64,000 nt of DNA from Sphagnum compactum (Eukaryota). This document shows, in pieces, positions 1,764-50,269 of the stretch (within the stretch, counting starts at the first letter, position 1; every line of letters begins with the position of its first letter). The notes under the pieces are model-generated. The model was given only the letters and a program-made list of their open reading frames with translations. It was not told where the DNA came from and did no database searches. Location of the stretch: positions 558,001-622,000 of the forward strand of contig OZ234494.1 in assembly GCA_965153455.1 (NCBI GenBank). The letters run 5' to 3'. The position numbers and the translations under genes are program-made.

Positions 1764-4700
1764 ATTTGTGAAATTGAAGGGTAAAAGACAAGCGTAACCA
1801 GATTAGACCATTACCTCTGCTGATGCCTGATTAGAGCTGAGATGTTGTGGATACCAGCATAATCAAAACAATCGCTGATAAACTCCTGGACACATAATGC
1901 TGTGTCCATTTACACTGTAGCAATGTGCTGAGGGTCTTACATGAGCAACGGAAGATGTTGAATCCATGACACAAGCTCATGCTGGGCTCCACGTTATTTT
2001 CAGTGGCAAAGCATCACCAAATTTGTACCATGAAATGGGTATGACAACGATGACACACAAAATGGTATGGTCGTTGGTCCAATGATCCATCTTCTATCTC
2101 ACAGGGTGAAGCTGCTAACGCATTCCATCACAGTCATAATATTAGAAACAACACCACAGTCGACTAATTTTGCAAAGCAAATCTTTTGATGATCAAACCT
2201 GCATCTGATTTGAAAACACAAATCAATTGTCAATAGAACTATTATTGTTGATTGACACATGTTTAAACTCTGGGTTCATCTATCAATGAGTGTTCTCAAT
2301 GGGCTCTCTTGTTAGGGTTGTTAGCTCAGCTGCTGTTTTTACTACCTGCGTCCTAGTAAACCCACTAGCCCTTACCTACATATTAGCCGTCCACATGACA
2401 CCATGCATGGGTGAGGTTTTGTTAAACAAAAATTCCTCATCTACCTGAACAGCAATGCAACCTACCATCATACAACACATGCTCTCATCTCCATATGCAC
2501 AAATAAACTCATCAGTCCTTGGAATACACAATTGAAAACATTTGAAGGTGCTTGATTTTGGAAAAGATATTTTACCTTTTCCCTCCTCACAAAACCTGTT
2601 GCAAATATGCAAACTCCAAAACAAAGTAACTCATTTTAAGAATGCAAATCCGCTAACTTAATAATGGTTGTCATCCATGTTCCTTCAGCCATGTTCCTCA
2701 ATGTACTATATTGAACCTCTGTAATCAGTGTCTGCTTCCAGAATATTAGATTAAGAATCCCAAGAATCCTAAGACAATAAATCATTCCAGAAAATCACAC
2801 TTCCGTGTTATATCAAATTGTTCTGATATCAGCAAGATATGAAAAAACCTTAAATACGAGGGTTCAAATATGGTATGAAAAGCAATTCCATCCAGTTTTT
2901 CAGGACCATATGTAGCATCACATTCAGTAGCTTGGGTTGCGTCACAAATAGCACCAGGACATGCACTGAAAAGAAACACAAGTCTTCTTTAGCTTTGTCT
3001 GCTCAAATCACAATGAGCCTGTGCAGCATGTGAATCACAGCAGTTTTAACACAACTAAGACGTGCATCACAACAGTTTTTTGTGCATGTGAAAACCATTC
3101 TATTACAAAACTCTGAATTCTGAAAGAATTTTGTAATAGAATGGTTTTAACATGCACAAGAAAAATCATCAAACATTTGCAAGGGCGGTGTGAAGCAAAA
3201 CAACCAAAAGTAAAATAAACTACCATGGTGATACTTGGGTATTTGCACTTCAAACTATTTCACCAGCAGAAGTGAAGAAAACAGACCCTAAAGGTAGATA
3301 CAGCCACGATAGACTTTGAAATGGCAATACTGCAACAAGCTTCAAAGACACCAAATACTTAAGACTGACCCATCAATAGATGATTGGTACAAACAAACTA
3401 GGAACGAATCTATGACCAAGTGCACTCACAGAGGAGAGCATTCACACCTTGAAGAAGCATGCCCAGTTCCCTAACTTTCACATACTGTTCGTAGATCCTG
3501 TCTCCTGGGCATTTACTCCTGTTTCTTCCAAGGCCATATCACAGCTTCTGAGCAGAAAGAAAAGACCAAACCCAAGGCAAATACCTAGTCTGGAAAACTT
3601 GCTTCACAGTGTGCACAAAACCACAGAACCACAATATGCTCTAGAACAAGAGTTCCAGGATTCTATCCATTTGCTGCTTCTTCGTAGCATGAAATGCAAA
3701 CTGCTCAACTGGCTGACAATCTTCCACTTTACAGCAACAACTCTCTCATCTCTGTTTGCATTGACACAGCAAAAAGCCCACTTCTCAACCAAGAAAAAAC
3801 CTATCTCGTATATCTCCACACACAAGACGCCTTCTCTAATGGAACCTGGCTGAAGAACGCTCGTGAAGAAAACACAGACTGCATGAAGAGAGAGAGAGCG
3901 AGAGAGATATGTGCAAAGTTCACAGTTTTAAGACCACATTTGGATTGTTACATACAAATCCAGGCACACACCCACCAGCATCACTGTGAACAGAACAGAG
4001 AGTGGGTGTTTAAATAAGATGATATACCTCAAGAGAAGACAATACTTCACATCCAAGACCCACTGCCATTGAACCTGCACACAAAAAGATGGAATGGTTA
4101 ATAAGAATGGTCTAAACAGACATCTGAATGGAAGGGAGACACAAAAGCTGTGTTCCGCCTTGGCAATTACCTCCTTTGCCCATGGCTGCAAAACTGGATT
4201 GTTTACTAGATAAGTAAATTAAAACAGCTTTACTACTTGTCACTACACCACCTTCAGAGGCAACTAGAGCTCTTTGCTCAAGAAATGAAGACAAAAAAGC
4301 ACAAATATCTCTGGCAGATAAAAGAGGGGGTGGACTCCCTCCTCTTAGAATACTCAAATGCAACGATCTTTGAAAACTGAAAAAGCCTTAACACTATATC
4401 AAACAACAGGGAAAGAGGCAATAGAGATATTGATCCTGGATTTAGGGTTGTAGTAGTAGTATTAGTCCAGTTAAATTAAGTGTTAGTTGATAAAAAGGGT
4501 CAAGGAAACTAAGTGATGTTAGCAAAGTACCTTTCAAGGACATGGCGTCAAAAGTGGTCAGCAGTGTGATCAGTCAATGGCAGAGGTCAGAAGAAATGGT
4601 ATCTGCTTCCACTTGGTCAAATGTCAGTAAAGCTTTACCACAACCAGCAAGCACAAATCCATACTCCACTGGTGAATTAGCACTCACTGCTCAACGAGTT

Positions 4701-5878
4701 ATGTAATATATAATCATATTCACCTTTCTATGCACTTTGTGAATACCCATTAGTTGTTATATATCACTACATTCTGGCACTCAGTCATCATCAACCCTAA
4801 ACCCCTAAACTTGCACAGGCATAAGGTACACAGCAACCAACCCAGAAGAAAAATACCCAAGGGTGGTGGACAGCCCACAGGGCAGAAAAAGTCAAGTGGA
4901 GAATTGAAACTACCTAGAGAGATGAACATCAACCAACTTGGTACCCTTTGAATTTGAGCTTCATTCCACATGACAAACTTGCCGTTACATTCCACACAGA
5001 ATCACCACTTTTACATAGACACCCACTACTCTGTCATGGTATTATAACACAAACACTACTCTTCCAGGTGTGGAGCATGTACTACTACCTACACTCAAAT
5101 CTCTTCAACATGGAACTGATAGACAAACACTAAACTGCAAGCCACAATCAGACCAGCAATTAGACAAACTAAAAGGACACACTACAAACCTGATGACTAT
5201 TCTTGTTAGTCGAGAGCATGCGCCAAGAAGGTGAAACCTCAAGTTTCCTCCTATGGTGCTGTCCTTGCGAGAAAGTGCCACTTAGTAGTAAGTAACCCAA
5301 GCTTCAGATGGGTCCCTTCCCTAAATACAGATTCCCTAAACCATCAGTAGCACCTTCTATTGATGACACATTGGAATTAGTCACAGATTTCCACATAAGA
5401 GACTGCATCAGCCTCTCAAAAAACCTGTGAAACATGTGATCACAAACATTATGGGCCAGAGCTTGGCTATGGAACGAACTATGCGCTTCAGTGACTTTGC
5501 TACACAAACGTTTTCCAAAATGCAACGGCAGCAGATATTGGTTGAAAGCTTGAATGTAGGATCTAACAACATGATAAAGCACATTGATATCATGATCCAT
5601 TCCATTGCTGCCGAACTGAGCGAACTTTCAGCTATGAAGTTTGTCACTCCGACAAGGCCTAGCTACAAAAGAAACACCAATTTTTTTTGTGCCTTACAAG
5701 CACCCAACACACCTCTGTGTTGCCGCACTGTGTTTTCCATGCCATCGACTTTTAGATCCACAGTAATCTCGATGCCAAATTGCCACGTCAAAAAACCTTC
5801 TGTCTGATGCAGAGTAACCCTCAGGAAGGAGTTTTAACAACAGCATCCCTGGTAAAAGCCACTGCAGCCATTGATTGC

Positions 5879-8800
5879 CTAACGCCGAGTTTTGGCACGC
5901 TTCATGCCCGGGTTGTTAAAGGGAGATACAGTGCCACTCATATATGCAGGGCTCTCCTCACGGAGGGTGCCATTAAGAATAGCTAGCTCCCGAAGCTGGG
6001 CCTTCTTTACCAGGTCAAATGTCTCATCCTGAAAGTGCAAAAGCCCAGCCATTGTTGGGTTAGTCCTTACTAATTCCTGCATTGATTCACTTACAATTTG
6101 CAAGCCCCTGCTGTAAAACTCTCTTTGGCCAATACAGTTTGATCTTGAAAACTGTCTGAAAGCACCCTGCACTTCACAATACCTGTACATTGCATAACCT
6201 AGTTCGGCACTGAACAGGTTCTTACTGGAAGATCATGGAGTTACCGGAGCACTTACCACCGGTTTCAGAAGCTCCTGGAGGATCTCACGGGCATGGATGA
6301 GTTGGCTATCAATAATATTTGCTGGCAGTTCAGCCTCCACCAATACATGCAACGGCTCATTCAAGTGCTCAAAACCAGGCTTGTCTCTCATCTTGTCTTC
6401 CTGCAGAGACCCAGACAAAATAAATAAATACCTTTATAAGTATTGAGAAACTTCTCCATACTTGCAAATTTGTGTCAACCCAAAATAGAATTAAGAGTTG
6501 ACCTGATCATAAGGTTGCTGGGATTTTCAATCAAATCTGACAATGTAGAAGCAAACAGGGGAAAAAAATGGAAAAAGCAAAAAAAAAGGAGATCCAACCC
6601 TAGAAAACAGAGAAGAAAAAGACCCAAAAAAATCTAAATCTGAGTTTTTCCTTCTAATGGCACATGCATCTCCAATATATTGATAATAGTGCAACCAATC
6701 ACATGGTGATGATGTCTGGATGAGACTGACTTTGGCAGTGTCTTTGATTGAACCTCGACCACGGATCAAAACCCGACAGCCAGTTGTTGCCTCTACACGC
6801 TTGAGTGAGTTTCCACGCGGTCCCAAAATCCTACCCACAAAGTTGAACTGCAGGATCCACAAGTTGCTTACATTAGTAGCATGATCAGGACAGAGCTCAA
6901 CTGGTGGGTGTGATTCACTACTAAGTATCAACTTCCACCTCAAGGTAAAAAAAATGTGCCCTTTTGTGCTGGTGCTAAACACCTCACTGTATGCCATGCA
7001 TGCATATCTATTACAATTCCAACTGCATGACATTCAGACGAAGAAGCACTTAAGGAGGGGGGATGACAACTCCTAGCCATGAAAGTAACAAAATCTGGTA
7101 AGCAAATCTCCTTTGCTAATAATACTATGCATAACACCAGAACTACCAGAAACAGTGGTATGTACTGCTGCTGCTACACACATTGGGGTACTTATCAACA
7201 GGAACTTCGATGCGCTGTGTTTTTTTTACTATTGTCCCAGATGCAGTCCCAGGAGGCCCATGCCAGCCTGCATGAGGAATTGCAACCCGCTGCTGTTGGA
7301 CACAAAATAACAGACAAAATAGTACTATTAGTACTTCCTCACAAGCCACAGAGTAAAAACCCTAGATTGCATCATCTTCGAATATGGAGTCAGACAGAAA
7401 AGAAAAACAGCCCTTGGAACAAGAGTGAAAAGGGATCAGATAAGACAAAAAGCATTACATCACCCCCCCAGCCATTAAGATCGCCTGGAGATCCAGTATT
7501 CATCAGTGTGCCTGCTGATAATGGGCTCCCGTGGTCAAGTCCATCCTGGTCCAGAAACGATGAGTTTCCCACAAGCGCCATAACTCGCACCATCTCTGTA
7601 TTAAAGGCAAAGACAAGAGAGCAGTATAAGTATGTGCAAATCTACTGTAAAGTCATAAACGGCAACTGATGGTGTGCATAGTCATTTCAAGCCAGGTGAA
7701 GCAAGCAAAGCAACAAGAATGAGAGATTATATAAGACTTTATACACAGTATGCTTCCCCCTCAAGGACAAGTGATAAAAATAGCAAACAATTTTTTTCCA
7801 ACAATCCTCCAATGACATGGTTATCTACTGACTGATATCCTTACCCTGGTTCAACAGGCGACTGCAGTTGGGCAGAACTTGCATAAAAGGACCCAGTTTT
7901 TGCCTTTCTGCCAACAATTCTGAAAGATACCTGCAAAGCAATACTCACTAGGCCCTCTGAGCAACAACAACAACCACCATAGTAAAGTCAACTCAAAGGA
8001 AGGAACCCCCCTCCTCCTCATGGTGCCAAACACCCCCCACTGTGAATCTGCAGGAAAGCTTCCATACACAAGGCCTTGATAAGAGAAAAGTAGTAATGAA
8101 CACCCCACCATCCTAATAGGCCCTCCGAGCAACAACAACCACCACAGTAAAGTCCAATGGGAGGAAGGAACCCCCTCCTCCTCATGGTGCAAAACACCCC
8201 CATTGCGAATCTGCCTGCAAGCTTCTATACACAAGACCTTGATAAGAGAAAAGTAGTAATGAATGCCCCACCATCCTAAGAGAAGTTGTAGGGACTCTGG
8301 AAAACAGGTAAAAGAGGAAAAATCCAAGCCCAAAAGAAACAGATAAAAACAGAAAACAATGACAGCTGACTCAGAGCAGTTTGAAGAACAGAGACAACAG
8401 TCACATGTGTGCATGCATGTTCAGAGAGACATTCTTCAACAGCAACAATGTATGATATTTTGGGCTGCTAAAAATTCAACATCCTCCACATTATACCACT
8501 GTTTATTTCTTTGGGTTCCTGTCACAAGAACTCAACCATGATGCTAGCTCACTAGCTCAACAAAACCCTGAAAAAAGGAGAGAAGAAGAAGACCCAACGA
8601 AGCTAATAAGAAAGAGGAACAAAATGGAATGATGGTGATTGGAAACCAAGCCTCAAGAACAAACAGCAGAACAACAATCAAAAACATACATAAATACCCA
8701 TTGCATTCTATCCCATTGCACCCATCTGATCTGACATACATCTGCACACTGTCCTCACCTTTGGTTTGCTACCCTTGAAGAAACAGAAATCAAAGGTGCA

Positions 8801-16253: not shown

Positions 16254-17421
16254 TAAAGGAAGAAGTACGTGTGTGCCATCTGTTATCGAAACTTGCTCAT
16301 CCCAAGACAACATATCAGAACCTTCTGGAAGTTCTTATAAAGATTTGAAGTTCCGAATTGCTTCCAAATAGGTACCGCATTGACACAACATTTCATGTCT
16401 TGTAAGCGTCACGCTAAAAACTTGCCTCTTACATCCTCTTGCAATGTGTTGCACGAGTTGTTCCTAATGACTTGCTAATCTGTTAACATTCCTTACTCCC
16501 ATCAACCATCACAAATATCTTGCAAACATTCCCCACCCATGACATTATTATTTTCTCCACAATCCAACTCTAGACCTTGGGCATGTCTTCGTGACATCCC
16601 AAAACAATCCTTGATTTCTCATCACTTCCACATCCTCCCCTAAACACTTATTGTACATGGGTTACAACAAGCAAAACCACTTGCATTTGATCAAAATCTC
16701 ATATCAATAAACTTAAGAAGAGTCCATGAATGCCTACAATCTATATTTAAACTACTCATGGTGGTCTATGGTAGGAATAGATTTTTGATTCACAATGTGT
16801 GTGATAATAATAGGGCAATTTTAAAGGTGATTGAAAATGTGGCAAAAAGAAGTGTTGACATTAATAGTTTCAGGCAACAATCGAGGAGTAAAGATGGCAT
16901 CTAACATATCCTTGTATTTGGGAAGACATCATGTTCCCAAAAGGTCTTTTCAAGATTGACAAATCTTCCAAATTTTGGTACGTGCACCATGAAACAAACA
17001 CCATAAATTCAAAAGCATGCAAAGAAAAAATCCTAGTACATGTACCATTGAATTATCTTAATCCATAGAAGTAATAGCAGAACTGGTCTTCTTTTGATCT
17101 ATAAAACTAGAAACAACATAAACATGTATTAAAAAATAAATGCCAATGGTTTTGCTAAAACCGATTATGTCCCCAAAACTCAAAACAACAATGGCAAAAC
17201 CATCATGGGCAAGATGAACAATAACTTCCACAATAGCAGACTCAATAACAAAGGCAACATCAACACTTCCATCAATAATGCTTCCATCATGATTACGTGT
17301 AATGGATTTTGGACATCTTGTAGCTAGGTAGTTTTAACATTCTTGTGGAAAGTTGAAAATGGGAAAAAAAAATTGTCAAGCAAGCTGAAAATCTATTCAA
17401 ACAAAATGGGGAAAAGATTAC

Positions 17422-18900
17422 CTTGTTATATTATGGTGGGCAACTGACTCTTCACTAAATGCCTCTTCATAACACAACAAGCGAGTGGATCACAACTCAC
17501 CATTGATGATCCACTACATTACTCTATCACGCATGTGTTTATCAATTTGGTTATACCTACACACACAACAAACCACATAAAAAAATTAAAATGAATTTTT
17601 TTTAAACATCAGCTAAGTTTGTAAAACAAGAAAAACACAAAAGAAAACCTAAAAAACAAAAATAAAACACAAAGTTTACTTGTCATACAAAATGGGATCC
17701 TTGTGACCCATTACCTTCATCCCATATTCTTGAAGAACAAGCACCTCTTCCATCCGAATGATTCCAATACCTTGGCCAGTCTTGTTAAACAACACCTTTT
17801 CTTGTAAATTAAAAAAAATTATTGTCAACTTTTCAAAAATTAATCACAGTTAATTACATCCCATTGGAGACACAGTAAACCATACTTAATTTTTAAATCT
17901 CCACTTAAACCTATGGTGTAAAACCAACGGATGTGGCCCAACTTACTTGGTCACTAGGGCAGAAAGTAGGATATATGGTGGCAAGCAATTTGCTTGTAAG
18001 TTTCAATAACATCTACAACCATGTAAACCATAGTAGGGCGATGCCAATTTGTAAAACAATAAGTGATATCTATCAACTAGTTTTTGGAGGCCCCTTAGAA
18101 AAATCTTGAACAACATGAGTAGGCAAAGAAGGCAATTGAACTTGTCAAAATCCACATTACAAAGTTTAGAACACCCCCTTATAAAAAAAATTGTGCTTGC
18201 AAAAGTATTCAAATTTGAAATTCAAACTAGATGGAAATGTTGAGCTAATATCTTGTGTTCCTCGACAATGGATAGCACATTTAATTTTTTTCACAAACTT
18301 GTGAATATTAATTATTGATGTTCAAAAGATTACTTCATCATTATCAACTGTAACATGGTGATACTTCAAATTTGTGAAGATATTAAAGGGGACGACATGT
18401 GTTTTACATGATTTAGCCTCATGTTGTTATTGTCATTGCTTTATAAATCTTCCAATACCATGTATCAAAGGCTACATGCTACAAAATAAACCAACCAAAA
18501 AAACATAGATAATAGATATAGTACAAATGCACAATACAATTACTGTAAAGGCACAAAAAAAATTTAACAACAATATAATACTTGAATGATACAAAAGAAA
18601 ACCTAAACCCTAACCCTTTTTTAAAAAGCAAAAAGCTGGAAAAAAAAAATCAAAAAATGAACAAAAATTTGTATTTGGTTGGAGGATATAGGCTACCATC
18701 TTTTTTTGCAATTTGCAAAAACAAACAGGATAGCATATTGATGAGATTTTTAAAAAAATTTCGTTTTCAAAAAGATCAACAATGTATTTTTTCATGTCAT
18801 AATCACAAAACGTTCTCCATTCATCAAAAGCATTTTTCACCCACAACTTTGTTTGTTTGCCCATTCTCCACCCTCTTTTGTTAACATTTTCCATCTCTTT
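17422..18900 (-). mobile_element. Decayed intron-containing Crypton-like tyrosine recombinase (DUF3504-type) transposon
   Basis: Motifs in the expected order on the minus strand: WVKNAFDEW (18843-18817), AKKDGSLYPPT (~18710-18678), LIHGIGRFI..FNIFT, VLSIVEEHKIL, HNFFIRG (~18195-18175), WFTVSPMGCN (~17882-17853), NKTGQ...RMEE...MKVMGHKDP..YDK|Y. A GT-AG intron at 17679-17557 precedes the presumptive catalytic Tyr. Many stops and frameshifts. Confidence 0.7.
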
Positions 18901-20220
18901 ATTTCCAATATTGAAGAAATGAAATTTCAAAAATAGCTCCTTAACAAGAGAGTCACAATTAGTCATTTTAACAACTTTAAAACCAATAACCTCCTGACCA
19001 AAAGGAAGAAACTAAAAGTTAGAATGAATAAAAAATATAAAAGTAACTCTAGCATTGATGTTGGGATGATTAGGAGGATCATGTACATAAAAAAAAAACC
19101 TCACAAGTGTGATGAGAAATAAAATCAAATGTAGAAGCATTAGGAAAATACCAAATTCTTCCATAATGTGAAAAATGTAAGGGTTGAATAAATGCCCAAA
19201 CACATTACTATCTACTTTAGGATGGAATTTAATAGAATTAGGAGGAGGTTTATTAATTGAAATATCAAAAACAAGATCATGGTTTTCAACATTCTTCACA
19301 CTACACATAAATCTTAGACCCATTTCTGGACCATAATAACTCATCAAACATACTAGCAATTAAACAATGTCGGTGTAATAAATGGTGTAACAAAAGAGAA
19401 ACCATAAAGTTGAACATTATATACTTCACAAGGCATAGAAGACAATGTTAATGTAGTAGGGAAAAAACTAGAAAGTTACATGTCAAATAATTCACAAGGC
19501 AAAGATATTGATTAAAGCAAGGTCTCACTTAAGATTCTAATAACATTTCGAACACCTTGATTGGTACAAAAAAAATTCACAACTTTAATAACAATAGACA
19601 TTGTAGAAAGAGGGAAAGATAAAGGATAAACACAAAAGGAAGAAGTATTTGACATTATAAATTTGAAAATGTAAATGCAATTGAAACTTACAACCACACA
19701 AACAAATGCATAAAACTCTTCTAAACAAAAAAAACACAAGAAAACCTGCACACATGAAACAAACATAAAAACTAAAAAAAGAATGCAAACAAATTGAACA
19801 ACAAGAAGGGAAGCATAGAAAGGATGTTCAAGGGGGGAAATGAGGAATGAAAAAATGCAACAATCAAAAGTAGTAGTAACAACTACAATGTAGGATAACC
19901 ACGTTGGCGAATGTAAGTGTAGTAAAAAAAGAAGAGACATTAAAATGCAAGAAAAGCCGATATGTTGTCGAGGAAGAAACACACAACAACATAAAGAGTT
20001 GAAGAAGCAGTCACACAAAAAAACCAACCAACACAAAAATGAAACAAGACAAAAATGATGAAAAGTTCATACACACCAAAACAAATGTTGAAAGAATTGA
20101 AATGAACAGAAGCTGAGTTCACCAACACATCATTGATGCATTAAGATACAAAACCAAAAGAAAACCACACAAAAAAATTTAGCAATGGAAAAATAATAAA
20201 AAAATGAAAACAATGAAGTT

Positions 20221-20283
20221 CTGACATGCAAGAAGACAATGGAGATTTTGCTGACATGCAAGAAGACAATGGAGATTTTGCTA
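20221..20283. repeat. 30-bp tandem duplication
   Basis: ctgacatgcaagaagacaatggagattttg occurs twice, with a related copy near 20388. Confidence 0.8.
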
Positions 20284-20650
20284 AGTTTGCCAATGTCTCG
20301 TTGATGCATTAAGACACCAAAACACACACACACACACAAACAATAACAATGGGGAAGAAAACAAAAAAAATGAAAATGATGAAGTTTTGACATGTAAGAA
20401 GACAATGGAGAAGAGAAGAAAAATGAAAACGATGAAGCTCCAATGTGCGACATAAACAAAAGAAGGAGCCTTATATGTTTTGCTCATCATCGCATTCCCT
20501 TTTATTTTAGCTAGAAAGAAGTTGGAAAGAAGTTGTAAACATGTAAAAAGATGAAGTTGATGGGGGGAAAAAAATGCATCGTTTTATGTAGGAGAAGGGT
20601 ATTTTAATAGACCTTTCTCCTATACTTAATGACTTACCAAATCATTAATA

Positions 20651-22880: not shown

Positions 22881-23639
22881 CTCGTGTGGCCTGTGCTGTT
22901 GGCCCAAGTGTTACCACGTCCTCAACTGATTTTTCCTTCCAAAACTTGGTTTTTTGGAATTTATTTGAATTTTCAGCAGCAGAAATCACTTAAAAATCAA
23001 TATCTCCCACATTTTGAATGCAAATCTTACCAAAATAAATTCCATTAAAATCCCACTCATCAAGATCTTTCCAACAACACCAAAGGCACATTCCAATTCA
23101 TCCGAACTTTTCAGCTATGATTCAATTTTAATTTAATTTTCAGTGAAAAAATCATTCAATATTCAAGAACTTCTACACCGCAAGTCCAAAACACCATGAA
23201 ACAAAGTTGATGCACCCCTCCTCCTCGAGAGCTTTCCAAAGAGACCAAGAACAAAGTTGATGCACCCCTCCTCCTCGAGAGCTTTCCAAAGAGACCAAAA
23301 ACAAAGTTGATGCACCCCTCTTCCTCGAGAGCTTTCCAAAGAGACCAAGAACAAAGTTGATGCACCCCTCCTCCTCGAGAGCTTTCCAAAGAGACCAAAA
23401 ACAAAGTTGATGCACCCCTCCTCCTCGAAAGCTTTCCAAAGAGACCAAGAACAAAGTTGATGCACCCCTCCTCCTCGAAAGCTTTCCAAAGAGACCAAGA
23501 ACAAAGTTGATGCACCCCTCCTCCTCGAAAGCTTTCCAAAGAGACCAAGAACGTGATCTAAAGCATCCCGGTTCAGTGGATCTTATAAGTACAAACAAAA
23601 CAAAACAAAACTAACTAACTACCTTCCTTCATAGATAGA
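22881..23639 (-). mobile_element. Non-autonomous Helitron-like element carrying a 50-bp minisatellite
   Basis: Minus strand begins A|TCTATCTATGAAGG and ends with a GC-rich degenerate hairpin then CACGAG|T (CTAG variant). Noticeably less AT-rich than its flanks. Confidence 0.55.
23201..23550. repeat. 50-bp x7 near-perfect tandem array
   Basis: acaaagttgatgcacccctcctcctcga(g/a)agctttccaaagagaccaa(g/a)a starts at 23201, 23251 and so on to 23501. No unique spacers. Confidence 0.97.
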
Positions 23640-46322: not shown

Positions 46323-49061
46323 CTACATCCTGTCAGCAAGATTGTGCCTTTGTAGTCTATGGATTGCTAGCTGCACAGCTGGTAGTTTCCGCTGAACCTG
46401 CTTCCAAATCATGTTTACAGCATCATCTGTCTTTGGTGGGTGTTGGTAATGAAAGTGATGTGACACTTCCTTCAGCCTCTTCCACATCCGGAGCCAATGC
46501 TCTTTGTCAATGTTGCGTAAATAGTTCAGAAGATAGTCTCCAGGGCGGATAGCTTCCTCAGCTGAGAAAAACAATGCAAACTCTGTGTAATCAAGTTCAT
46601 CCTCAAATGGCAGTTCTATTTTATCGCTCACAATGACAGGGACACAGTGGCTCGCAATTGCGTCAAAAAGGCGACAAGATGATGGTGTGTCTCCAGCTGG
46701 ATGCAAGCAAAACCGTGATGAACGCATACCCTTAGTTGCCTGCAAAAAAGACACGGGCACAATAATAAATCCATTAGCAAGGAGGAGTCCTATGCCAGAC
46801 AGCCATGACCCAGTAGCATTCACACATCTACAGATGTCAATTTCTTTTAAGGAGGCAAGAGTTGTTGAGGACCCAAAAAGTTCACTCTGTTTCCTACATG
46901 GCATCAAAGAATATTGGAGAAAACTCAGAAACCAGAGTTCAAGGGCAGCTAGAAAGGTTAGGTGAGATTGTAAAAGAACGAATACCTGCTCCACCCCTTC
47001 CTCTGAGGGGAGGCTATTCACAAAGTGCACATCTGTTCTGTTCTCTAAAAGCTTTGCCAATTTTCTCCTCACTGTCCCATCCTGTTGAATGCACCATCCA
47101 ACAATGCCCGATGTGATGAGGAAGACAAAAAAACAATGATGGACTCTCTCACACTGTGGATGATATTGCAAGCATGCAAGCACACAACATGAACTTCGGT
47201 AAGAAGATCCAAAACAAATGCAACATTATCCCACAGGACAAAAATCTAACCTCTCTTCTCAATTCAACACTGTGCTCAAATCTGGTGCCTATCCAACAGC
47301 CAACATTGAACTTTTTTTCTGTTTTCAGGTCTTGCTAGAATTTAAATTGAAACCAACAACCATGTGAAAAGAAACTGGAGGAATTATCTTTGATCTTCGT
47401 GCCACTTGCAAACACATTCATGGATTGAAAGAACCATAGATGATTGCAGAAGCAAAATCTGTACTCACATCCTTGCGCTCGACTCTTCCTTGGAAAAATA
47501 AGAGGATGTTCCTGGATGCAAATGGGTCAGCTATGCTGTCGTCATCATTCTCTTTCCACATGGGCACTACATGCTCATATGGAGCTACAACATCCTTCTG
47601 AAGCCGCGCAATCTCCTTTGGATACCGCCCAAAATCTGCAACTATGAGAATTGAGTCTTTAAGCCTCTCTCTGTAATACCTGTCCATAAATAACCCAACA
47701 TCCCCCCACCCGAAGTCTCAATCATTGACAAAAGAAAACCACCACAAAGTGTTCTTGTACTCAAAAACCATCGTAATCTGTTTTTCTCTCTTTGCTTCTC
47801 AAACCGGTCTCCAAATGTTGCAACACTCACTGTTGTTTTCTCTCATGAACAATACTCACAAAGCAGAATTGTTTTGTTACTGAATCCTAGAATTAGCAAG
47901 CAAGCAAGCTGGAGACAGCAACAGAGACAGTTTCAGAAACCAGCTCTGAAAACAGTACCTAAACGCATTTGGATGATGTGCAACGATGACATGATCATGC
48001 CCTTGAGATGCTTGCCACCATTTTGACTCCATCAGCATTTCCACCACACCCATCTGCAACCGCCCCCCAATTACTGAGACCAGCTCAAGAATGCCCATAT
48101 ACTTTGCCATTGTTACTGATCACAGAGCTTGACAGTAGTGTGGGTTTCTCTTAGTTTCCAAGATGACACTGATACTGCTGAGCTTGACAGTAGTGTGGGT
48201 TTTTCTTAGTTTTTGAGATGACATGGATATTGCTGAGCTTGACAGTAGTGTGGGTTTTTCTTAGTTGCTGAGATGACACTGATATTGCGGAGCTTGACAC
48301 TAGGGTTGGTTTTTCTTAGTTTTCAAATGACAAACAGAGGCACATAGGGAGAGAGAGTTAGAGAGTAGCAGCAGCAGCAGCAGCAACAGCATACTTACTT
48401 GGAGAAGTTTGTCAATCTTGGCTTCAGGTCCAAGCATAATACGACCATAAGTGTTGAAGGAAAGTGATGAGAAGAATGGCACAAAGAAGACATCAGCTTG
48501 CTCTGGATCCTTCACTCTCACAGCTGCCTTCTTCTCCTCCTCCTTCCCATCATGATTGTGAGATGGGTCATGGTCATCCTGCAGCATGTCCAGCATCATC
48601 CAGTATTCCACACTATGTTGTCTGTTGACTCCCCATCTGGTCTTCAGTGCTGGAGCAACCTCTTGGTCTGTCCATGGAAGCTCCTGGCTGATCCCATCAT
48701 CCTTCTTCACCATCCCCAGATTGTACTTCCGAGGCAAATCATACATAAAAACCTTGAGAGGTGAGGAGCATTCAATGTTTGCATCCCGAATCCTCACCCC
48801 AACATCATCCAGATTCATAGCAGAAACTGATGATGATGATGATGATGATGATGACGATGCATCCGAGAGATTCCCACTCTGCCAAGATCTTATACTTTCG
48901 CGAATCCTGCTGAAAGACAAGGAAAGAGATCTGGCCTCAGGGTAAATCACAGACGGAAGCAGAAGAAGAGCTGCAACACAAATGCTTGTGAGCACCAAGA
49001 TCACCGGCTTCTTCATCATCATCCCCTTGCCTCCTCCCATCTGCATCACCATCACCATCAT
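46323..49061 (-). CDS. GT47/exostosin-family glycosyltransferase (ARAD1-like probable arabinosyltransferase), 5 exons; start Met uncertain
   Basis: Exons ~49061-48399, 48053-47959, 47679-47469, 47081-46986 and 46739-46323. N-terminal TM anchor, [74 protein letters not shown]. Confidence 0.95.
48110..48330. repeat. 55-bp x4 intronic minisatellite
   Basis: gagcttgacagtagtgtgggtt..cttagtt at ~48125, 48180, 48235 and 48290. Confidence 0.9.
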
Positions 49062-50269
49062 CTTCTTCTTGGGTACCCCAACTCCCTAGTCCCCGGAGAT
49101 CCCCGTCCGTGATCGCGGGACACACGCAGTTTCAACCTCCTCAGGTCCTCCTCCTCTCTAGGACTTGAAGAACTCCATGATCTTGTCGCTCCTCTGCGCC
49201 GCGGACTTCATGATTTCCGATCTGAGTACTTGCGCTTGAAACCAGACAGGAGGAGGAGAAGAGAACAACTCTCCGCTGCTCGATTTGCCCTTCTTTCATT
49301 CCAATTTTCCAGCACCCAAAAAAAGCTTCTTCTTCTTCTTCTTCTTCTTCGTCCAGATTGCTGCAAAATCCTGGCGCTCTGACTCATGGATGATGTCTAG
49401 AATCTTCTTTGCAGCATTCCGCATTCTTATTCTTGCTCCTCCGACGTTGCTCCGCCTCCTCCTGCTCCTGTTTTCGAAACACCGGAGAGTCTCAGCAAAC
49501 ATCATCCTAGAGATGAATCCTTTTGTCACAACAAGTACCCAAATGCAGATTTCTCAAAATCCCCTCACAAACAACACGAGAAGAATGCGAGGAGGTGAAG
49601 GAAAAAAATAATCTCACCCATTACAAGGACTACTGCAAAAGCTTTGAAGCAGCAGAAAACGAAACAAAGGAGGAAAAAAGATCCAGGAACCCCAAGACAC
49701 GAGAGAATTCTACTCCAACTCATTCATTCTAGAACTAGATTCAATCCATCAGAGTCCAAATGCGCACCAACTTCATCGCCTCCGCCTCCGCCGCCGCCGC
49801 CGTCATGGTAGTCTTAGAGCAGGATCTGGATCTCTTTTCTTTCTTCCACAACAAAACACACCATTGAGTCACATGCACAAGTGCATTAGAAGAGCATTGT
49901 TTGTTGTTCACACGACTGCTGCATGCAACAACAACAACAACTCCATCTCCATCTCTCTCTCTCTCTCTCTCCTCTCCTCTCTCTCTCTCTCTATACAGCA
50001 ATTGTCAAAACAGTCAAAAGACACAAGAAGCCCAGAACTCTTATGAAAAACATTATGGAGGGAAGGAAGGAAGGAAGGAAGGGCCCACAACAACAAGTCC
50101 ATAATTCTGGGAAGGAGAAATTGCCTGACATACTCCACACTTTCTGGCTACCTAATCATGAGTAAGGGAAAGGAGGGAGAGAGAGAGAGAGAGAGAGAGA
50201 TTGGATACAAACAAACAATTTCAAAAATATTTTTCTTGTTGGGCATTGTCTTGCAATTGTGTCAAGATC

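Follow-up and report, generated by a model that had tools for sequence, protein, structure and literature searches.

What is the decayed, coding-like sequence on the minus strand at 17422–18900 of a 64,000-nt stretch of the moss Sphagnum compactum (GenBank assembly GCA_965153455.1, contig OZ234494.1, positions 558,001 to 622,000; the whole stretch is called the window below), and what kind of genetic element did it belong to? An earlier note on this DNA had read it as a Crypton-type tyrosine recombinase (YR) gene of the DUF3504 family. We find that the region at about 16,497–20,240 of the window, minus strand, is most probably a dead copy of a compact, YR-only, Crypton-like element of the DUF3504/CryptonA kind. 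The original reading is borne out by the DUF3504 matches and the fold of its relatives, by dispersed copies and by the lack of a linked reverse transcriptase (RT). The copy is best read as one of many in a Sphagnum-type genome.

We translated the window in the three minus-strand frames (0, 1 and 2) and located the motifs on which the recombinase reading had been based. All nine were found in place. Frame 2 contained WVKNAFDEW (18843–18817), HGIGRFI (18462–18442) and FNIFT (18387–18373), and frame 1 contained KKDGSLYPPT (18706–18677). Frame 0 held the remaining five: LSIVEEHKIL (18275–18246), FFIRG (18188–18174), SPMG (17870–17859), NKTGQ (17786–17772) and MGHKDP (17711–17694). The proposed intron at 17679–17557 was likewise exact, with GT at 17679–78, AG at 17558–57 and a length of 123 nt, and it stands before the Tyr codon.

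Database searches were made with a frame-0 read-through in which stops were written as X (P0003). An exhaustive HMMER (phmmer) search of 1.84 billion representative proteins yielded 96 relatives at E ≤ 1e-3; 15 of them reached E ≤ 1e-10, none reached E ≤ 1e-30, and the best E-values went down to 1e-17. Most of these relatives were short gene calls, themselves decayed copies; a few were intact proteins. One protein, P0090 of the liverwort Riccia sorocarpa (431 amino acids, aa), aligned over residues 6–352 and collinearly with window positions 18993–17448 in a tblastn search, which found no second P0090 match elsewhere in the 64-kb window; the window thus holds a single copy. These matches put the pattern far beyond chance. 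A coincidental likeness, or contamination of the assembly by fungal or animal DNA, is a next to negligible explanation, even if the nearest groups named in Pfam are animal and fungal: the E-values speak against it, the contig carries plant GT47 and KH-domain genes, and related contigs, whose flanks are 89–95% identical, hold the relic at the corresponding position.

The named relatives were all from bryophytes. They comprised P0100 (551 aa), P0101, P0102, P0090, P0029 and P0112 of R. sorocarpa, P0084 and P0086 of Riccia fluitans, P0113 of Calypogeia fissa and P0103 of Physcomitrium patens. P0100 is labeled in UniRef as a DUF3504 domain-containing protein. When 18 relatives were scanned against Pfam, DUF3504 (PF12012) was matched at E ≤ 0.1 in 10 of them and above the gathering score of 29.7 bits in three (P0029, 31.7 bits; P0047, 30.1 bits; P0043, 31.7 bits), and five gave a sub-threshold match to Phage_integrase. 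For three of the six full-length proteins, the DUF3504 match remained below the cut-off, at 19.9–28.2 bits. The nearest ESM Atlas clusters of P0090 were DUF3504, Phage_integrase and QRICH1 proteins of cnidarians and molluscs (score 0.97, structural template modeling (TM) score 0.59).

The fold was assessed on the Riccia protein P0100. A first AlphaFold model based on seven sequences had a mean predicted local distance difference test (pLDDT) score of 44.5 and was discarded; the fold search used a model of P0100 (AF2) based on 20 sequences, with a pLDDT of 74.2 and mostly >85 in the core. In Foldseek, Cre/Tre came first among the PDB entries, aligned over about 360 columns with E 1.8e-8 and a target TM of 0.59. 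In total, 44 PDB matches were obtained at E ≤ 1e-3, including QRICH1 (9hjt_H), Tn1549 Int, IntI, XerA, XerH and lambda Int. The likeness of the model to Cre, Tn1549 Int, XerA/H, IntI and lambda Int covered E-values of 1.8e-8 to 2e-3, but sequence identity to Cre and the bacterial and phage integrases was only 12–14%, and a PDB sequence search with the family profile gave no match at E ≤ 10. The predicted structure supports a two-domain Cre-like fold, core-binding plus catalytic, for the Riccia relative rather than for the relic itself.

The active site of the intact relatives consisted of the Arg in FFIRG, the Lys in (T/S)SKN, the box N-K-(S/T)-G-R, GH(R/K)D and KY. P0117, a distant relative that passes the cut-offs of both Phage_integrase and DUF3504, has the standard box NHSSR, and the Lys of the plant proteins lines up with the His of this box; the plant family thus has K-x-x-R in place of the H-x-x-R of the superfamily. 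The suggestion that the HxxR box appears here as KTG(Q/R) was correct, as the Lys is family-wide and the window has Gln where the relatives have Arg. The residues of the window copy are R, K, K-x-x-Q, H and Y, and its Gln codon CAA would derive from the Arg codon CGA. Type IB topoisomerases carry Lys at the position of the H-x-x-R His; by this analogy, the change from His to Lys need not abolish catalysis.

We then delimited the parts of the relic gene, all of them on the minus strand. Exon 1 (18676–18966) is decayed and starts at a candidate ATG (18966–18964). It covers the N-terminal region with WVKNAFDEW and KKDGSLYPPT, was delimited by tblastn with P0090 residues 6–109, and aligns to WARRTFDEW and KKDGTLYPPT of the Riccia proteins; one frameshift, from frame 2 to frame 1, lies near 18755. 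Intron 1 (approximately 18479–18675) was deduced from the collinearity with relatives, in which PPT and AIGR are about seven residues apart, versus about 200 nt in the window. Its acceptor AG (18480–18479) is intact, its GT donor is decayed, and similarity between copies dips there. P0111 and P0114 (another plant) read through the equivalent intron, and P0110 is spliced at this place. A telomere-like GGGTTAGGGTTTAGG stretch lies within intron 1 (about 18600–18625, minus strand), and intron 2 contains a similar word, TTTAGGTTTTCTTTTGT (repeat D12, 17622–17653 / 18576–18607).

Exon 2 (17680–18478), delimited by tblastn and by alignment with intact relatives, is the decayed catalytic core. It contains 10 in-frame stops and three frameshifts (frames 2 to 0, 0 to 1 and 1 to 0). 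Both the Arg of FFIRG (18179–18177) and the His of GHKDP (17705–17703) are encoded here, as is the K-T-G-Q box (17783–17772), in which the Gln codon CAA stands where relatives show Arg. A frame-1 stretch (18121–17966) carries the Lys motif of the beta-hairpin, SKN (Lys at 18085–18083). A frame-0 'KIFLRG' was tried as the Arg-I/hairpin region and dropped, because tblastn with P0113 shows frame 1 there (GASKN*LID). Intron 2 (17557–17679, GT-AG) splits the Lys codon directly before the catalytic Tyr. It appears as a 41-residue gap in tblastn alignments, and other copies (P0011, P0030) read through the same intron. Exon 3 (17422–17556, decayed) opens with the Tyr codon TAT (17555–17553), followed by ...DRVM*WIINGE...EEAFSEE, and contains two stops; it aligns to KYDQ..NRAMQRIICGE..FDEAL of the relatives. 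Directly after it, a GT at 17421–17420 is a candidate third donor.

The homologous segments together contain 12 in-frame stops and at least four frameshifts. Intron 1, the third donor GT, the frame-1 SKN stretch and the full extent of the damage had been missed by the earlier note. The window copy is long dead and now functionless: besides these stops and frameshifts, it has Gln where the second catalytic Arg belongs, and a deletion has cut back its 3' side.

Did the protein extend beyond exon 3? A decayed coding-like extension at about 16400–17340 had been suspected, and its existence is upheld by coding-type conservation among copies, by an open frame of 205 aa in one locus (L043:6455–7069), which corresponds to the conserved block, and by homology to the C-terminus of Calypogeia P0113. 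We place this decayed C-terminal extension of the same protein at 16770–17333, minus strand. The conserved block within it (16960–16770, minus strand) reads CLPKYKDMLDAIF..INVNT..HIFNHL*NCPIII in the window and, as a motif of about 60 residues across copies, FWNxMFEKELPKYKDxLDxIF..INVNT..HVFNHLxNCPINITYVVD. The last 102 residues of P0113 match 20 of 80 loci by tblastn at E ≤ 0.01 (best 1.2e-5), and the counterpart of the block in this protein is at residues of about 355–420. No Pfam family was found on the block: four of five translations had no match and one had a weak match to Ig_PIFI (E 0.012). A DNA-binding role of this domain would be a guess.

Mismatches between copies were counted by codon position. 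In the C-terminal block they were most frequent at third, then first, then second positions (0.310, 0.219 and 0.167), and the same order was found in exon 2 (0.351, 0.309 and 0.253). Exon 3 followed this order too, with its excess at third positions, and in intron 2 the coding-type pattern was absent. This distribution, found in all three coding parts but not in intron 2, supports the view that the protein of the element was once under selection. The gene would have had two introns, probably a third, and a C-terminal domain of its own.

We next asked whether the relic belongs to a dispersed family. A pattern search of metagenome contigs, starting from an eight-sequence alignment, gave 391 matches, of which 168 were confirmed as relatives; the copy analysis used the best 80 of these 168 stretches. 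At ≥85% identity over 1 kb, the 80 loci fell into 29 groups. The open reading frames (ORFs) flanking them belonged to different host genes depending on the locus: RRM, zinc-binding dehydrogenase (ADH), 2OG oxygenase, protein kinase and Kelch-like genes. The possibility, raised at the outset, of a single-copy host gene is ruled out by the 168 related stretches and the at least 29 distinct loci with differing neighbors. Six loci (L001–L006) represent the orthologous or homeologous locus of the window, with flanks 89–95% identical and the relic about 85% identical. The insertion is shared with them and is therefore older than the split, and it has evolved faster than its flanks. Among the 74 non-orthologous loci, 58 were similar to the 14–24 kb part of the window, with nearly all of the similarity inside the element and at 63–78% identity there. 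The exon–intron layout was the same throughout the copies, introns included, which points to a spread as DNA. In two loci (L031, at 2184–2802 and 4262–4880, and likewise L032), the exon-1 region occurs twice about 2 kb apart, as a local duplication inside a single copy.

Dispersed copies could also have arisen as pseudogenes of a domesticated DUF3504-like host gene family that was multiplied by ordinary gene duplication. Mosses do have relatives that look like host genes (CY35_16G002800 of Sphagnum magellanicum, with a BTB domain, and Coilin_N proteins of P. patens), and the relics yielded neither termini nor target-site repeats. This explanation is nevertheless unlikely. The loci, at least 29, have unrelated neighbors, with similarity confined to the gene plus 1–3 kb, and nearly all fetched copies are dead. 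Moreover, the relics keep GH..KY and the INVNT/NCPINI block, both absent from the BTB and coilin genes, and none of them carries BTB or Coilin_N.

The extent of the Crypton-like unit was estimated from the similarity between copies. Coverage of the window by copies was highest over the exons, dipped at intron 1, and was thin over 16,497–17,400 and 19,000–19,411. The 5' non-coding part (18967–20239, minus strand) is common to several paralog groups at 18967–19411 and to the closest paralog group only (L013/L015) at 19412–20239; this group matches the window over 16,546–20,239. The 3' non-coding tail (16497–16769, minus strand) is similar to paralogs as far as 16497 (L077) or 16544–16574 (L013, L044–46). 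In the window the tail has been shortened by deletion, as L002, L003, L013, L045 and L077, which represent the orthologs and three paralog groups, continue together past 16497. Identity to the orthologous loci is lowered between 16496 and 20650. Among 19 long representative loci, similarity between groups reached at most about 3 kb upstream and about 1.8 kb downstream of the anchor, and the best pair, L003 and L013, had 4.3–4.5 kb in common. On these alignments, the element is about 3–4.5 kb in size and the recombinase is its only predicted gene.

Two features of the edges were noted separately. At the 3' edge of the relic the orthologs differ by insertions or deletions: where the window has 203 bp (16293–16496), L002 has about 1.5 kb (L002:4382–5883) and L003 about 0.6 kb (L003:7361–7947). 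On the 5' side, subterminal repeats of about 168 bp (about 20012–20483; pairs 20112/20280 and 20187/20353) lie where the similarity to the closest paralog ends.

Another possibility is that a larger mobile or virus-like element carried the YR gene as cargo or as one of its modules, and that only its most conserved part is still recognizable. A tandem array of 50-bp units at 23149–23602 of the window (seven registered copies of a 154-nt stretch) bears on this possibility, since five further locus groups (L009, L020/21, L050/53/56, L058/60/61 and L074) have similar arrays within 2–5 kb of the relic and eight of the 58 similar loci also match the array, at 22.9–23.6 kb. The outer 5' part at 19412–20239, common to one group only, could be seen in the same light. 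Yet the distance, side and orientation of the array vary, most long loci have no common sequence past the 3–4.5 kb unit, and host genes start within a few kb. We therefore regard a larger element as highly improbable. A match to zf-FCS (MYM-type) at 23159–23557 (E 6.6e-4) was rejected as probably spurious: it lies within the 50-bp array, and no single stretch passes.

In eukaryotes, YR genes have one other source, the DIRS-like elements, and the relic might be the recombinase module of a DIRS- or Ngaro-type retrotransposon with RT and RNase H lost or located elsewhere. A class in which the YR N-terminal domain is related to plant ALOG proteins is described in part of PMC3537659. No RT, RNase H, methylase or integrase domain was found in the 64 ORFs (≥55 aa) at 14.5–30 kb of the window, which gave four weak unrelated matches, and likewise none of these domains in 119 ORFs (≥110 aa) around the 29 group representatives. 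The linkage to RT or RNase H that would have spoken for a retroelement is thus missing in both sets. The shared unit is at most about 4.5 kb, introns are kept in the copies, and the section of Kojima and Jurka (PMC3212892) dealing with DIRS and Ngaro YRs gives them no DUF3504 match at all. All of this makes a DIRS-type origin very unlikely. Near one copy, an ORF at L038:10689–11111 (minus strand) had weak, sub-cut-off helicase matches (UvrD_C_2 and Herpes_Helicase, E about 1e-4) and may be a remnant of another mobile element.

Several points weigh against a Crypton-like element. Nine window pieces and two stop-as-X read-throughs had no relevant Pfam match, even at E ≤ 10; the only match, a weak one to DUF269 (E 0.092), was set aside as irrelevant. 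The YR/DUF3504 test proposed in the earlier note was thus negative for the window pieces and positive for the relatives, which match DUF3504, and for the Riccia model, which matches Cre and QRICH1. As the window translation itself lacks a Pfam match, family membership rests on the relatives. The filing under CryptonA, in turn, is based on domain matches and fold rather than on a tree with reference Cryptons. The plant family also departs from the textbook R-H-R-Y tetrad, with Lys for the first His in all its members, and the K-x-x-R variant is only presumed to be catalytically competent. A repeat scan and edge alignments of the relic turned up neither inverted nor direct terminal repeats that were convincing, and the edge alignments of copies gave no termini, no target sites and no empty sites; toward its outer ends, the L003–L013 similarity fades into low-complexity DNA, T-rich on the 5' side and GA-rich on the 3' side. 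Mobility is consequently deduced from the dispersed copies only. P0100 matched 78 of the 80 loci with stops in 77 of the 78, the exception being a fragment of 88 residues, so there was no intact element among the loci from this host type. Only eight metagenome datasets supplied the 80 loci, and DNA of several closely related mosses may be mixed among them. Finally, the intact liverwort proteins, known here as sequences, may belong to mobile elements or to host genes.

If the reading as a Crypton-like element is right, known Crypton behavior suggests how the active ancestor would have moved. It would have been excised as a circle by its own recombinase and re-inserted where a short sequence at its end recombined with a target resembling it. 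This proposal is drawn by analogy from the model of circle excision and re-insertion by Goodwin, as cited in PMC3212892, and from observations in Chlamydomonas. According to the portion of PMC9977147 on CryptonF-1_cRei of Chlamydomonas reinhardtii, a 5-bp terminal motif recombines with a matching target, and excision and rearrangements occur; of the mechanisms considered, this one is the best supported.

The neighborhood of the relic is that of a moss genome. A GT47 exostosin gene, ARAD1-like and with at least two exons, lies at 46326–49085 (minus strand), and a KH-domain gene (KHDC4/BBP-like) at 5882–7033 (minus strand). One GT47 exon is 97% identical to a protein of Sphagnum tenellum and 83% identical to one of S. 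troendelagicum; the land-plant origin proposed for the DNA can therefore be narrowed to a Sphagnum-like moss. The GC content of the relic is 0.317 vs. about 0.43 in the genic flanks, and the relic is situated at the edge of an AT-rich stretch.

How does the element compare with known systems? The host survey in Kojima and Jurka 2011 (PMC3212892) lists Cryptons in fungi, stramenopiles and animals, and a figure legend there names Chlamydomonas as the sole 'plant'. DUF3504 is described as widespread in Opisthokonta in the corresponding passage of the Glomhopper paper (Krysinska et al. 2026, PMC13465315). As characterized in the element descriptions of these two papers, CryptonA and Glomhopper resemble the moss element in being compact, with a YR matching DUF3504 as the sole gene and introns in many copies, in having mostly truncated or decayed copies, and in the absence of long terminal repeats and RT, neither of which was found with the moss element. 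The moss element differs in its moss host and liverwort relatives, and in the Lys that replaces the H-x-x-R His in every member of the plant family examined here. It also has a conserved C-terminal domain, unlike the animal Cryptons, for which the account in PMC3212892 gives none. CryptonF-1_cRei, as presented in the sections of PMC9977147 devoted to it, is likewise a YR-only DNA transposon of the green lineage, and is active there. It belongs, however, to the CryptonF group, which carries a GCR1_C domain according to the group descriptions of Kojima and Jurka (PMC3212892); the moss C-terminal block has no Pfam family, GCR1_C included, and no terminal motif was found in the moss element.

The Crypton-derived DUF3504 genes of animals (KCTD1, ZMYM2/3/4, QRICH1 and KIAA1958) belong to the same domain family, and QRICH1 was among the fold matches (9hjt_H). 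Unlike these genes, the window copy is a dead dispersed repeat, and the relic consensus keeps the His and Tyr motifs. No description of a Crypton or DUF3504 element from land plants was found in the open literature searched, with Repbase, Dfam, supplements and subscription journals outside the scope of the search, and the words Crypton and DIRS are absent from the Sphagnum genome paper. Land-plant members of this element family seem to be undescribed so far.

The family also has relatives among annotated moss gene models, in which fusions with BTB and coilin domains are known. The S. magellanicum protein CY35_16G002800 (P0248, 813 aa, in a cluster of 74 members) contains the recombinase-like region, which aligns with P0100 over 401 residues at 38% identity (E 1e-74). 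It has kept FFIRG and NKTGR, has GH..KY replaced, and carries a C-terminal BTB/POZ domain (61.9 bits), in which it resembles the animal KCTD1 (BTB plus DUF3504). Judging by its sequence, P0248 may be a domesticated Crypton gene. In P. patens, two paralogous loci with several isoforms, LOC112277641 and LOC112281767 (P0103, P0104, P0258 and P0265), have Coilin_N (PF15862) joined to the recombinase-like region, of which they retain the first two thirds, ending before the K-x-x-R, His and Tyr motifs. By analogy with KCTD1, ZMYM and QRICH1 in animals, the BTB and coilin fusions look like parallel domestications.

Tentatively, and with slightly more doubt than belief, we suggest that bryophytes have an old CryptonA-like lineage of their own, with K-x-x-R and a private C-terminal domain, that may be intact in Riccia and Calypogeia, is extinct in Sphagnum, and was repeatedly domesticated in mosses. 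If true, plants would have arrived independently at a counterpart of the animal genes KCTD1, ZMYM and QRICH1. Cryptons and DUF3504 genes are known so far from fungi, animals, stramenopiles and one green alga; a bryophyte lineage would extend the distribution known for a rare transposon class and would offer a natural variant of the recombinase active site with Lys in place of His. Its relatives, in addition, point to candidate domesticated genes in mosses.

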